This document shows positions 7,207 through 54,638 of a DNA stretch of 64,000 nt, piece after piece (positions within the stretch are counted from its first letter, which is position 1; the number at the start of each line of letters is the position of its first letter). The stretch spans positions 87,792,001-87,856,000 of the forward strand of contig OX597818.1 in NCBI GenBank assembly GCA_951406725.2. The letters run 5' to 3'. The notes under the pieces are model-generated. The model saw only the letters and a program-made list of their open reading frames with translations. It ran no database searches and had not been told where the DNA came from. Position numbers and translations under genes: made by a program. This DNA comes from Octopus vulgaris (lineage: Eukaryota).

Positions 7207-8213
7207 TATATCCTCTCATAATAACAAACTGTTAAATATTAATACATTTACTAATACTAACATTAATTTAGCTAATACCATCCAACCCTCTAGAAATATT
7301 AATAACAAGGTTATTGTATCTGAAGTCAATTCCAATAGAATTAAATTTATGTCAAGTAACTCTAAGATTAAAAATTCTATATACCAGTGTATAATCAGTA
7401 CTCGTAATAAAGTACGATTTTACATTGGAAGTACATCGTTAGAGTTATCTAAAAGAATTTCTATCCATTACTCAACATTTAGGGATAGAAATAAACGGAA
7501 TAGTACCGGTCTCAGCAAACTGATTTGGGATTTAAAAGACCACAATGAACAATTTCATTTAGAATGGTTGATCCTCTCAATTTCAATACCATATGACAAA
7601 GGCAAGAAATTCTGTCTTCTCTGCAATTCTGAGCTATTTTTCATTATTTTTTCTAAAAATACTCTAGTAAACACGGTTATAGAACGAGCATACAGATGTA
7701 AGCATTGGCAGAAACATACATTTAGTGCATATAAGTAGTCTCTATCATTATATATAATTTAAACTTTAATTTCCTTTATATTTAACATTCACTATTAATA
7801 TCCCTACTCTTTCTGTTAGCTACTTATGACGTTATATCATATAACGTTTTTTTAAACAATATTAATAGCGTTCTGTCTATCGCTATACAAATCCATCATT
7901 TTTTGCTAAAATGTCGTATTGACGAGTTTCGTTTTTTTCACTTTCCCGAAGAGAAGATTGCATTGTTTATACCATTTATTCTTTTGAATAGTATCAGTGG
8001 AATTTTCGAAACATGTGTAGAAAGTAAAAATACTTGTTTAAACCTGCGTTAACTCCATTTTTTATTCATATTATTCAAAATATTCAACGTAAACACGAAG
8101 TTTCAACCTTTATAAAAAAGGAGTTACAATATCTTTACTTGTGAGATTTTGCTGCCCTGGTAACTATTTATTTATTTTTCCTTGTTAATTGTTAACAAGG
8201 TAAAAATACACTC

Positions 8214-8222
<9 letters not shown>
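7207..8222 (+). mobile_element. 5'-truncated PLE of a related subfamily (GIY-YIG domain + pLTR)
   Basis: ISSHNNKLLN..VSEVNSNRIKFMSSNSKIKNSIYQC..FYIGST..CLLCNSE..CKHWQKH (stop at 7738) is paralogous to the C-terminus of the 17237 ORF. Followed by an HHR, a donor site and (TA)n. Confidence 0.9.
7933..8030 (+). ncRNA. Hammerhead ribozyme, CCGAAGA core variant
   Basis: TTTTTCACTTTC-CCGAAGA-GAAGATTGCATTG...CAGTGGAATTTTC-GAA-ACATGTGT-A-GAAAGTAAAAA. Confidence 0.75.
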
Positions 8223-8270
<48 letters not shown>

Positions 8271-16364: not shown

Positions 16365-16528
16365 GGCGCCGACGTGGTTGTGTGGTAAAGAAGTCTACTT
16401 CCCAACCACAAGGTTCCGGGTTCAGTTCCACTATGTAACACTTTGGACATGTATCTTCTATTATAGTTCCGGGCCGACCAAAGCCTTATCAGTAGATTTG
16501 GTAGACGGAAAGTGGAATAAGCCCGTGG
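16365..16528 (+). mobile_element. SINE family A 5' half (3' half at ~20320-20530), split by the PLE
   Basis: Head ends at AAGCCCGTGG-TATATA; tail resumes CAGCATCGCTTGACAAC after the PLE and microsatellite. Confidence 0.75.
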
Positions 16529-16577
16529 TATATATATAAATAAATGAAAGAATGGAGTTGAACGACGAATTAAAAAA

Positions 16578-16676
16578 ATTCCTTTATTCTCGACATGTTT
16601 CGAAGGCTGCATATTCCTAATTTCGAAGGAATAAGGGGTGCATTATGCCGCCTTCTCATCAGGAAAAACAAGGAAT
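16578..16676 (-). ncRNA. Type I hammerhead ribozyme in the PLE 3' pLTR, intact core
   Basis: Minus strand: ATTCCTTGTTTTTC-CTGATGA-GAAGGCGGCATA...TATGCAGCCTTC-GAA-ACATGT-C-GAGAATAAAGGAAT. Stems I and II pair, palindromic minimal stem III, GUC cleavage triplet. Confidence 0.9.
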
Positions 16677-17236
16677 TATGTCAGCATCAAGATGAACAAA
16701 AACTTTTAGATGACTGCCCACACGGAGCCCATAGCGATAATGAGTGTTTCTTTAAAATATTCCGTTATAAGCAGTGACGTCAAAAATGGTTGAATGTAGA
16801 AGATTCTAGAAGGTTCAAGGGTTCAAACAAGGTTGGAGGAGAAAGGTCTAAGAATAGGAAGGTGACAGGGTGCAAGTCATATGAATGGTGATTTGTTGTT
16901 GTTTTCTTTTGTGATTGAGTGCCTATGTGTGTGTATGTATATAACTGCATTCATGTCTATGTGTGTGTATGTGTGCGCGTGATTGTGTGTGTGGTTGGGT
17001 AGATGCCAAAAACAAACAGTGGTGAAGTGACAGGTTTGTGTCTGTGTGTTTGATTGTGCTTACGATAGAGAGAGGGAAAGAGAGAGAGATAGAGGAGGGC
17101 GAGGTAGAGAGACAAAGGTAAAACATACCTCAATGGATTGGGTAGTAGTCCTTTATGAGTATAAAAATTGACTATGTGGGTGATGTATAAATGGAACTAA
17201 ATTATTAAAATTTAAGGAGGTTATCTATATTAATCA

Positions 17237-19883
17237 TCATTCATATGAGTGAAAGGTGTGTTTCTGCCAGTGCATGCACCTATAGGATTTTTCGACCATT
17301 GTATTTATTAAAGGGACTTTGGCGAACAATATATGGAAAAGTTCGGAATTACAGACGCCACAAAATGTTCTGCCCTTATCAAACGGAAAGGATACAGACA
17401 ATATGGACCATTTCAGCTTGAAAGTTGTATTGCTGTCCTTAAGACGCCAAACTAATTTACTTAGTCCTATGCTTTGTTGTTTTCTCTTATCTCGGAAAGT
17501 TGAATAATGATTGGAGATCCTCTGGGCTAATTTAGAAGTAGTTTCCCCAATGTAGAAGAAGACATCGGTACCGGAAGAAATTTTACACTGGTAAATGGAA
17601 TTTCTAATTTTGGAATTGCTGGATAAGAACTTTAATCTGTTAGGGTTTACCTCCGAGACTAAGACGGAGTTTTTATTGTTATGATTGCTGTTAATATTAT
17701 TGCTAGCATTGACCACAATACTATTCCTATTATTATTATTACTATTAATTGTACTATCGTCGGCAATTTCCCTGACTATAGGAATGCTGGTGTTGTTATC
17801 ATCAATACTACCACTGTTATTAGAAATGCTGTCGTTATTACCACTAACACTACCACTGTTAATAATCCGACTAATATTATTATTAATATTACTATTGTTA
17901 ATGCCAACACTGCTATGAATGTTGCTATTATCAATACTATTTCTATTATTATTATTATTATTGTATGTTTGGTTGGAATTGGTAAGGGCAGTGTCGTAAC
18001 TCCCGGGTGATGAGTCCTTATTTAGCAGCTTGTTATTATGGGAGGCAATGATCTGCGATAGATTTCTAGTGTTAGAGAACACAATCCTTACCTTATGTGA
18101 ATTGATAGTAGAGTAATACCTAGAATTCCTGGGAAAGTTCCTAGCTACGGCTTCACGGAACTGTAAAGGGAGGTTTGACCTGATTTGTTTCCCGAAATGT
18201 ATGACAAACCAGATATAGTCTTTTGTGGACTTAGAATAGTTCAGAGTGTTACCATTTACATTAAAGGGAGTATTTCTGTGCTGGAGAATTGGTGTTGGTT
18301 GCCGATTGCCTCCCCTGGTCCGTAAATTATTTTTGTTAAGTATAGTGGTGTCGACGTTGTTAGAGCTGAAATCATTATTTACATTATTTCTATTGTTATT
18401 AGTTTTCTTATCCTGAGAAGCATATATTGGTTTAGAATGGGCCAGGTCTATATATACTTTATCTCTATAACCGGCTTTTGACATGGCGGCGTTATAAAAT
18501 TCCGCTTTTTGGTTAAAGATGTCAACATTAGCAGATAAATTTGATAGTCTTAAGGAAATATTTTTAACTAAATTATCGGTGATATTTTTGGCATGGTTAC
18601 TGAAAATGCTGATATATTTAAAATTAGTAGAAGGCTTATGATAAGGGAAGTAAGAATTATTCTGCAGATTTAGGGTAACATCTAAGAAGTTGGCTTTAGT
18701 TAATTCGTCGTCGAAAACTATGCTCAAGCCCATTCTGCTAAAAAATCTAGCTAATCTGTTTTTAGTCTTCTGTATCATATTGTTCGGAGCATTCTGTAGG
18801 TAAAGTAGACAATCGTCTCGATACAGACCGCCGCAGATGTCCGGGAATTGGTCGGCCAATTCATAGAGAATATAGATTCCGACCAAATCGGCTATCTGGG
18901 CGCTATCTGCACTTCCCATTAGCACATCGAACGCGTTGGGGGTATCCCTGCGGACCCATAACTTATCATCGAACTGTATGAAGGATTTTCTAGCCGCTAA
19001 AATTACATTAATTTCCTCCCTTGAGAGGCCTGCCTTATTATGTGCGTGCCATAGGGCCTTATTGAGTACACTAGGGTTGATCGAAGGGTAGAAACTAGAT
19101 ATATTGAATTGAATGAATTTTGTGTTGTCCTTATTAGTAATAGAAGTAAACCACTCTACGACTTGAGTGGAGTTAGACCATAGGCTGAGTTTTAACTTAT
19201 TGATTAATATAGGTATGTATTTATCTAAAATGTACTTAGTAAGGATACCGATGTCGGAACTAGAGGGGCATATGAGCCTTAATGCCGGGTTGGTATGAAA
19301 GTTTGGTTTATGGTCCTTAACGATGAATCTTGGTTTTCTGGGGTTCAGCGGTTGTGTTTTCATTTGTAATCCATATGTTTCCATGATTTTATTAATTTCT
19401 AAGTTGGCTTGTCTGAGTGTATTCCTACTTGATGTCCTGTAATTCTTATGTATTTCTTTCTTGAGCATTTCTAAATACTGGTTCTTTGCTAGCTTATATG
19501 TGTTCCTGGTTTTATCCGATTGGACCAGGATAGCGTCTAAACTGTTTATATCTTTGATGACTTTATCGAGGTATTTGAGGTGTTTATTCCTAAGGGGCGA
19601 TTTACGGAATTTAATGGCCCTTACGATGTCCCACAGATCATCTTCAAATTTCTTCAGTCTGGGATGGATTAGGTGGAGAGGTTCCCCTCGACTTAAATAA
19701 CTTTTTATATTCGAAAGATGTGTCAATACTGTTCCGTTTTATGTCCTCATTATCGTGGAAGAAGGCGAGCCATCTAATGCGGTTGATAAATGCATTTGTT
19801 TTATTAACAATTTCCTTAAGGAAGGTTTCTTTTGGTGGTATTGGTATGTCCTTAAGGGATGCGTTAATGTCGAACAACTCCAT
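17237..19883 (-). pseudogene. PLE reverse transcriptase + GIY-YIG endonuclease ORF, frameshifted and with a mutated catalytic Asp
   Basis: N-terminus MELFDINASLKDIPIP..RIRWLAFF..FKS..PPN (19883-~19670) continues after a 1-nt shift as HPRLKKFEDDL. Motifs: DKTRN, KDHK..RLICP, FIQFNISSFYPSI (D>N), FDVLMGSADSAQIADLVG, GLYRDD, FLDVTL, SIYQC..FYIGET..R..H, CGVCNSE..CMH. Confidence 0.92.
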
Positions 19884-19920
19884 TTGCGGTATCGGTTAAG
19901 GTAGCAGGATCTCAAGGAGA

Positions 19921-19985
19921 CTGTATATGAATAATTGAGTAGTTGAATGAATTATCTTATTATGGATAATTCGGTTAACCGATAC
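19921..19985 (-). other. Predicted 65-nt spliceosomal intron in the PLE 5' leader
   Basis: CCCAG|GTATCG...TACTCAAT...TCATATACAG| ending 37 nt before the ATG. Donor context recurs at 53860 (-) and 8160 (+). Retained 5' introns are a known PLE trait. Confidence 0.7.
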
Positions 19986-20164
19986 CTGGGTAGCAAATTC
20001 ACGTCAGAAAAACACGGTTGAAGCTACATGCCAAGGGCAGAGATCACGTGCTTTCGTGTGGAAATTTGTGTTTATAGACTGCCATATTAGTATGGCGATA
20101 ACTATTAATATCCAGTAACGCTGCCGTAATCTCCTTTAGAGAGACTTAGTAATTTTAATATTTC

Positions 20165-53737: not shown

Positions 53738-53808
<71 letters not shown>

Positions 53809-54012
53809 AAATGGATAAATGAATTATCTTGTTACGGATTATTCAAATTATAACCGATACCTGGGTAGCAAAAATCACAACAGAAAAATCACGGTTGAGG
53901 TTACGACCATGGGGTATCGCAACCGTGCCTCAGTGCGGATAATTGAAGTTTTATATATTTAGTGAGGGAAGAAATGGAGCTGAACGAAGATTTTACAAAA
54001 TTCCTTTTTTTT

Positions 54013-54098
54013 ATTTTCTACACATGTTTCAAAGGCTGCAAATTCCCTAATTCGGATTGAATAAGGAGACCATTTTGCAGCTTTCTCTTCGGGAAAAT
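54013..54098 (-). ncRNA. Hammerhead ribozyme, left arm (CCGAAGA variant)
   Basis: ATTTTC-CCGAAGA-GAAAGCTGCAAA...TTTGCAGCCTTT-GAA-ACATGTGT-A-GAAAAT. Confidence 0.75.
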
Positions 54099-54426
54099 CC
54101 ACGAACTTAAATCTCCAAACAAATGCGCAGCAAGCTTTTCGAACAAACGCTCCCTAGGAGCCCATGGTATGAATGGCACAAAACTGTCTCTCAATATGCG
54201 TTGACGTCAGGGTGGGTGAAGGCCGACGAAAAAGTCCGTTGAGATAATTCGATAATTAACCGGAATTTGACCTCGAATTATCTCAACGGACTTTTTCGTC
54301 GGCCTTCACCCACCCTGACGTCAACGCATATTGAGAGACAGTTTTGTGCCATTCATACCATGGGCTCCTAGGGAGCGTTTGTTCGAAAAGCTTGCTGCGC
54401 ATTTGTTTGGAGATTTAAGTTCCTGG

Positions 54427-54512
54427 ATTTTCCTGAAGAGAAAACTGCAAAATGGTCTCCTTATTCAAACCGAATTAGGGAATTTGCAGCCTTTGTAACA
54501 TGTGTAGAAAAT
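54427..54512 (+). ncRNA. Hammerhead ribozyme, right arm (GAAA mutated to GTAA)
   Basis: ATTTTC-CTGAAGA-GAAAACTGCAAA...TTTGCAGCCTTT-GTA-ACATGTGT-A-GAAAAT. Confidence 0.7.
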
Positions 54513-54566
54513 AATAAAAAGGAATTTTGTAAAATCTTCGTTCAGCTCCATTTCTTCCCTCACTAA

Positions 54567-54638
<72 letters not shown>

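Follow-up and report, generated by a model that had tools for sequence, protein, structure and literature searches.

A long-range helix in the leader of Hydra-clade Penelope-like elements joins two copies of a hairpin motif and may organise the start of reverse transcription

Introduction

Two questions about Penelope-like elements (PLEs) are how template and start site are selected and what gives their insertions tails and inverted ends. The stretch of DNA analysed here (64,000 nt, referred to as the window) contains on its minus strand a PLE leader in which two 12-nt segments can pair with each other. The initial annotation, which was correct in recognising a PLE leader, interpreted this stem as a device that hides the donor of a 5' intron from the splicing machinery and thereby keeps an unspliced template pool apart from the spliced mRNA. 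The question is whether the stem (P1) is real and, if so, what it does.

Some features of PLE retrotransposition are already known. In the anole PLE (PAc Poseidon, Frangieh 2024) reverse transcriptase (RT) starts at two internal sites and the spacing between them equals the tail. The RNA 3' of the starts is required, both target strands are extended, and a dimer has been predicted (PMC11167929). The presence of a tail on one of two inverted pLTRs has also been reported (PMC3846280, PMC8557442).

Results

The element in the window

The PLE extends from about 20071 to 16529 on the minus strand of the window (Table 1). Its ORF contains, as read by eye, YRDD and a C-terminal IY...YIG, which correspond to a PLE-type RT and a GIY-YIG endonuclease. 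The ORF has 144 homologs with a best E value of 4e-109, and a Pfam search with it returned no significant family. Rfam did not report the hammerhead at 16662 and gave nothing meaningful in the window or in five loci. pLTRs, tandem and inverted structures and an optional tail, by which an EN+ Penelope-like element is defined, were all found. In tandem copies motif 1 (see below) follows the short 3' end within about 20 nt.

Table 1. Features of the element and its leader, in window coordinates
Feature	Position	Strand	Remarks
P1 5' arm (donor arm of the initial annotation)	19975..19986	-	core is positions 2-11, 19985-19976
P1 3' arm, upstream of the AUG	19888..19899	-	
P2 hairpin in the P1 loop	19949..19972	-	sequence check and folds
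Motif copy 1	19990..20068	-	CAAATT 20068-20063 / AATTTG 19999-19994, predicted pairing by eye, then CTAC; large loop insert
Motif copy 2 (P3)	19900..19923	-	CAG 19923-19921 pairs with CTG 19907-19905, then CTAC; CAG is the acceptor of the initial annotation
Single-stranded A/C/U-rich linker with the long 3' end of family copies (putative second RT start)	19923..19939	-	97 long ends
Candidate 65-nt GT-AG intron, predicted	19921..19985	-	second AG at 19912-19911
ORF with RT and C-terminal GIY-YIG	17237..19883	-	frameshift near 19650-19740 breaks the ORF in the window copy
Minimal hammerhead motif, 3' UTR / pLTR	16589..16662	-	pattern scan, predicted only
Short 3' end of the window copy, into (TA)n	16529..16545	-	end comparison

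When compared with the Hydra clade (Craig 2021, PMC8557442), the element resembles it in the C-terminal GIY-YIG, the hammerhead, (TA)n insertion (164 of 167 ends) and the signatures RW[K/L] and DKT, and Hydra consensi also carry the doubled motif described below. RWL, DKT, CGVC and CMH were read in the ORF, where the definition of the clade has RWK/DKT, no CCHH and a C-terminal CxxC plus CxH. It differs in having a divergent motif, an Asn-rich linker in place of CxCX5C, and a unit of about 3.6 kb where the clade has less than 3 kb; a relative, P0002, does carry the CxCX5C motif. On its sequence the element is filed here as a Hydra-like, divergent PLE. The long Asn-rich linker lies between RT and endonuclease at 17600-18400 on the minus strand, where the CxCX5C finger would be expected, and it can be likened to the N-rich inserts reported from rotifer Penelopes (PMC3846280).

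The same genome has many related families, here labelled A-I, with 46 DNA matches and 150 protein matches at 54-100% identity. Family F is very young, as all of the 40 pLTR matches listed are 100% identical. Among its members (L110, L258-L287), whose pLTRs are identical, many have a frame of about 900 codons that is still open, and the family is devoid of the first AG discussed below; on C1 at least four 3.6-kb units stand in tandem. A family-D array of at least seven units, tandem and inverted, occupies L019-L026 (C20, about 23.33-23.35 Mb). In the window itself, a 3' fragment of family H (7754-8224, plus strand) stops at its long end in (TA)n.

P1 is a conserved helix

It was confirmed that positions 19986-19975 of the minus strand are the exact reverse complement of 19899-19888 (12 bp) and that the 3' arm lies 4 nt upstream of the AUG at 19883. 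The 8-bp hairpin which had been noted within the loop (P2, 19972-19965 with 19956-19949) is also present; it is predicted at the same place in most of 19 folded leaders, with variable sequence. When the 192-nt leader was shuffled 5000 times with its dinucleotides kept, 3 of the shuffles gave a perfect stem of at least 12 bp. However, the whole window contains 12 non-simple perfect inverted repeats of the P1 class, so that P1 in a single copy is only suggestive and evidence from the family is needed. The family data remove this doubt.

Twenty-seven leaders, picked to span the families, were aligned from sequence alone, and RNAalifold recovered 9 of the 12 P1 pairs unaided. P1 cells were paired in 89.5% of cases as against 78.1±1.5% after shuffling (0 of 500 shuffles reached the observed value), and slid partners gave 21-40%. 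Two of the five covariation measures, those which count pairs or types, were not significant (320/500 and 157/500), and the remaining ones are inflated by related rows in the alignment. An ORF tree was then used for 61 leaders, 15 of 76 being left out for a truncated, deleted or unmatched 5' arm. Five double changes in P1, read by eye, fall on at least three branches of the tree. Four pairs are altered on both sides by way of wobble or mismatch intermediates (G-U, U-G, U-U, U-C): position 5 (U-A/A-U), position 7 (G-C/U-A through U-C and U-U), position 8 (G-C/A-U through G-U) and position 11 (A-U/U-A through U-U, and afterwards U-G and C-G). The end pairs are poorly kept (22/27 and 15/27), leaving a conserved core of 10 bp. 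Unrepaired mismatches exist in subfamilies D and C, and in one leader, L120, P1 fails to fold (0.01). The initial annotation had proposed that genome-wide copies be examined for covariation of the two 12-mers; they are conserved and have undergone compensatory changes. P1 is a real helix under selection.

An origin of P1 as a palindrome or template-switch artefact is ruled out by the stepwise mismatch intermediates that are kept in families. A 6-bp extension over the AUG, seen in the fold of the window copy, is not kept in families F and H and was discarded. A 12-nt self-palindrome overlapping the 5' arm (19982-19971, minus strand) occurs in subfamily A only and is absent from the other families.

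The helix joins two copies of a hairpin motif

The initial annotation overlooked two features of the leader, namely a doubled hairpin motif and the position of the long 3' end of the element inside the loop closed by P1. In the window family the pairing of motif copy 2 (P3) is kept at its three positions in 23, 20 and 24 of 27 rows. The insert in motif copy 1 has a hairpin of its own (20050-20000, minus strand, and homologs), with a perfect 9-bp stem in family F.

A first metagenome scan for relatives found nothing. A later one gave 77 loci. In 24 of them the leader is complete and a GAGCACT-type motif occurs twice. These 24 leaders have a common layout: hammerhead, AU-rich strand, hairpin GCTC...GAGCACT, arm, AU-rich strand, repeat of the hairpin, arm and AUG. 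P1 in these distant leaders always joins the 3' flanks of the two hairpin copies. The arms are unrelated in sequence between families and pair within a family. Among 23 leaders (the 24 minus the near-duplicate L173) the mean energy of the duplex formed with the own arm was -11.88 kcal/mol as compared to -6.25±0.54 kcal/mol for permuted arms, and none of 100,000 permutations was as low. Individually the pairing is significant (p<0.05) in 16 of the 23; in only 7 of 24 leaders was the own arm the best partner, in part because some of the families are related. The motif is present in published Hydra consensi as well, and the same two places are where these consensi stop (PMC8557442, supplement).

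The window family shares this layout, with CAR...YTG-CTAC instead of GCTC...GAG-CACT, copy 1 holding a large insert and P2 following the P1 5' arm. As the letters of the two motifs differ, position and pairing are what suggest that the window motif is homologous to the canonical one. Three decayed families of GAGCACT type (L244, L246 and L247) exist in the genome of the window as well. A search of this genome for the doubled GAGCACT pattern was discarded as mostly chance, with 22 matches against 49 for the control and PLEs in 3 of the 20 loci fetched. The idea that the tail is a second hammerhead was also rejected, the core being broken in several families.

Insertions end at either motif copy, and inverted pairs use one of each

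Loci from the same genome were collected as the best 30 matches of each of five queries (150 loci, hence not a random sample), and 246 alignments with at least 85% identity were sorted by the type of 3' end. Seventy short ends lie just 5' of motif 1 and 97 long ends just 5' of motif 2, with 8 in between, so that 167 of 175 are at either motif; 164 of the 167 run into TA-type repeats. The remaining alignments comprise 37 read-through cases, 5 at locus edges and 29 early ends (27 of them from an unrelated repeat in one reference). In the distant loci 8 of 9 terminal ends are 15-24 nt before GAGCAC.

Of 41 insertions arranged head to head, 39 combine a short end with a long one; two of the 39 may be one duplicated insertion. 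With an expectation of 0.49 per pair under independence, this has a probability of about 1e-10 by hand arithmetic. Of the two that depart from this, one is a 167-bp rearrangement (L006), and in the other two different families lie side by side (L045). In ten pairs of family F the arm that reaches farther is the long one in 6 and the short one in 4. A short arm reaching farther means that these 4 pairs are not the fold-back of a single cDNA. Two inverted insertions of family F (L261, L265) have their 5' breakpoints within about 10 nt of each other and near-palindromic junctions.

Such ends could also arise if the structure acts on DNA or antisense. The doubled motif and P1 would then be structures of single-stranded cDNA or antisense RNA that show the endonuclease where to make its two cuts, and an intermediate resolved in a staggered way would leave the short and long ends. 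Sense pairing gives the better duplex in only 10 of 23 cases, and the 24 distinct arm pairs have G-U in 4 cells as against A-C in 6. The tail has been attributed to EN-mediated resolution (Craig 2021, PMC8557442), cleavage by the Penelope EN needed the tail (as cited in PMC11167929), an antisense self-priming model has been proposed (PMC3846280), and near-palindromic junctions occur in 2 of the 10 F pairs. Against this, the anole PLE works on sense RNA, and the ends of the tail coincide with its two RT starts (PMC11167929), and in the leaders G-U and U-G cells are common to 3 and 8 copies on the sense strand, whereas A-C is confined to 1-2 copies. We regard action on DNA or antisense as very unlikely.

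Splicing as the role of P1

The GT at 19985 and the AG at 19922-19921 are present as letters, and their labels as donor and acceptor are predictions. The candidate intron measures 65-79 nt across the folded leaders. When leaders are folded, P1 is predicted to bury the candidate donor as had been suggested, the unpaired probability of +1 to +6 being at most 0.06 in 14 of 19 leaders.

It is conceivable that a real 5' UTR intron exists in the lineage of the window and that P1, together with P3, masks its splice sites to keep an unspliced template pool. The GT is kept in 58 of 61 leaders of this genome. Of the 61, 60 have an AG at one or other of two sites, and the second is present in lineages without the first. 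The donor context fits 5-7 of the 9 bases of the general consensus. P1 positions 2-4 have no shared double change, and four of positions 5-11 do have one. Introns in the 5' UTR at the pLTR boundary are known from Penelope and Chlamys-3 (PMC2377424, PMC8557442). Genomic leaders number 87 unspliced against 0 spliced by two search patterns, which would fit intron retention and is uninformative on whether the intron exists.

On the other side, +5 is an invariant C that is paired in P1, and the first AG is absent from 19 of the 61 leaders (present in 42), including those of the young family F. The first AG forms the 5' strand of the P3 hairpin, where it pairs in the folds with a near-invariant CTG, and the pairing of P3 partly explains both AGs. 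The distant leaders have no conserved GT or AG: of the 24, five lack a GT near the arm, GT stands at scattered positions in the others, and three have no AG between the motifs. Within the genome of the window, L244 and L246 fold a P1 of 10-12 bp and are free of GT between the motifs; a donor-like GT is present in L247. Among the records listed as containing the sequence, none is registered as RNA. No joint at 19921/19986 was seen among the 15 joints listed for contigs of four runs on 16525-20085, a listing that leaves out a further 11 joints and 63 indels; the RNA status of these contigs is guessed and their depth is mostly due to solo pLTR and tail copies, so that this result weighs on neither side.

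The initial annotation was right about the leader, the conserved stem and the predicted burial of the candidate donor. The intron is not supported, and its presence in the window-family lineage is doubtful, though it is perhaps there. Nor is donor masking supported as the job of P1, a helix which is found in 23 distant relatives without fixed GT or AG and in L244 and L246. A splice switch cannot be the function of P1 throughout the clade, and one limited to the window lineage is unlikely. Such a switch could coexist with a role in priming, given that the P1 5' arm and the long start site would both be lost on splicing. Should the intron also be real in this lineage, its removal would destroy the priming element and so set mRNA apart from template.

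Discussion

The covarying helix, the doubled motif, the two clusters of 3' ends and the rule of one short and one long end are best explained by a scaffold for priming at two sites. P1 likely organises the start of reverse transcription rather than acting as a splicing switch, because it links hairpin copies beside the two ends. We give a probability of about 65% to the reading that each motif copy positions RT just upstream, that P1 joins the copies and that both are primed in one insertion. P1 would be the long-range helix of the Hydra-clade PLE leader, joining the 3' flanks of two motif copies, each just downstream of one of the two 3' ends. By analogy with the anole PLE these ends would be RT start sites. 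The motif would bind RT, and two RT subunits could each prime one nicked DNA strand at the (TA)n target. The tail would be the stretch between the two motifs, about 150 nt in the window family, and the whole structure would be carried only by RNA that reads through the pLTR-leader junction. In the in vitro assay of the anole PLE the choice of start site was alike on both strands (PMC11167929), which counts against this reading, and the duplex comparison above does not favour the sense strand.

Somewhat short of even odds, we would place the idea that two identical hairpins clamped by P1 form a loading platform, which seats an RT-endonuclease dimer and primes both strands of the cut target at fixed sites. 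Were it true, the PLE tail, the inverted structures and the requirement for tandem copies would all be explained, and the RT family closest to telomerase would have its first defined cis-acting RNA fold.

P1 might instead be mainly an element of translation, which occludes or presents the AUG of an RNA whose 5' end is made by the hammerhead. The 3' arm abuts or covers the AUG in the window family and in several relatives. However, the distance from motif 2 to the AUG ranges from 12 to over 50 nt, and the doubled motif, the end clusters and the 39/41 rule are left unexplained, which makes this the least probable of the readings weighed.

Priming from a two-site scaffold can be compared with known systems. 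Known PLEs, PAc Poseidon among them, are alike in having two 3' ends downstream of a hammerhead, an AT-rich target, a tail on one inverted end and a need for RNA 3' of the start site (PMC11167929, PMC3846280, PMC8557442). They differ in that the tail is 30-40 nt long, as against about 150 nt in the window family and about 55-70 nt in canonical Hydra leaders, and in that the start sites lie inside the ORF, whereas they are upstream of the AUG here. In addition, each end here goes with one of two hairpin copies which a covarying helix connects, an arrangement for which the literature searched gave no description.

With regard to splicing, the candidate intron resembles those of the 5' UTR of D. 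virilis Penelope and Chlamys-3 in its position at the boundary of pLTR and body and in its size (75 nt in Penelope). Those introns were demonstrated by RT-PCR or Iso-Seq, whereas the present one is predicted and its sites are not conserved across the clade (PMC2377424, PMC8557442). A weak donor predicted inside a stem recalls the structure-attenuated donor of MLV, which was established by mutagenesis; here the helix also exists in relatives without the donor (PMC2794156).

The leader can further be likened, as an analogy only, to the core of telomerase RNA, which serves a sister RT. In both, a hairpin, a single-stranded stretch for the start and a second structure lie within a long-range helix (PMC4993307). 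Unlike telomerase RNA, the leader would have no reiterated template, as copies run hundreds to thousands of nt past the start, and its 5' hairpin is copied through by RT.

Tails, their occurrence on one of two inverted ends and two RT starts were known before; the structure behind them would be new. No description of the doubled motif, P1 or twin priming in PLEs was found in the openly accessible texts searched, and the term 'twin priming' has 0 occurrences in the four main PLE papers. A motif and a helix at both 3' ends throughout the clade provide exact positions to mutate in the existing in vitro assay. They also allow a structural comparison with telomerase RNA, the RT of which belongs to the sister group.

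Several 5'-truncated copies (L065, L097, L126, L128, L062, L070), from a sample selected for an intact ORF start, break in or beside the P1 3' arm, possibly by stalling of RT. Elsewhere in the window, a two-ended inverted insertion of an E-like sister family has its long end at 53796 and its short end at 54573, and this insertion (53796-54573) is the source of the 301-nt inverted repeat I8.
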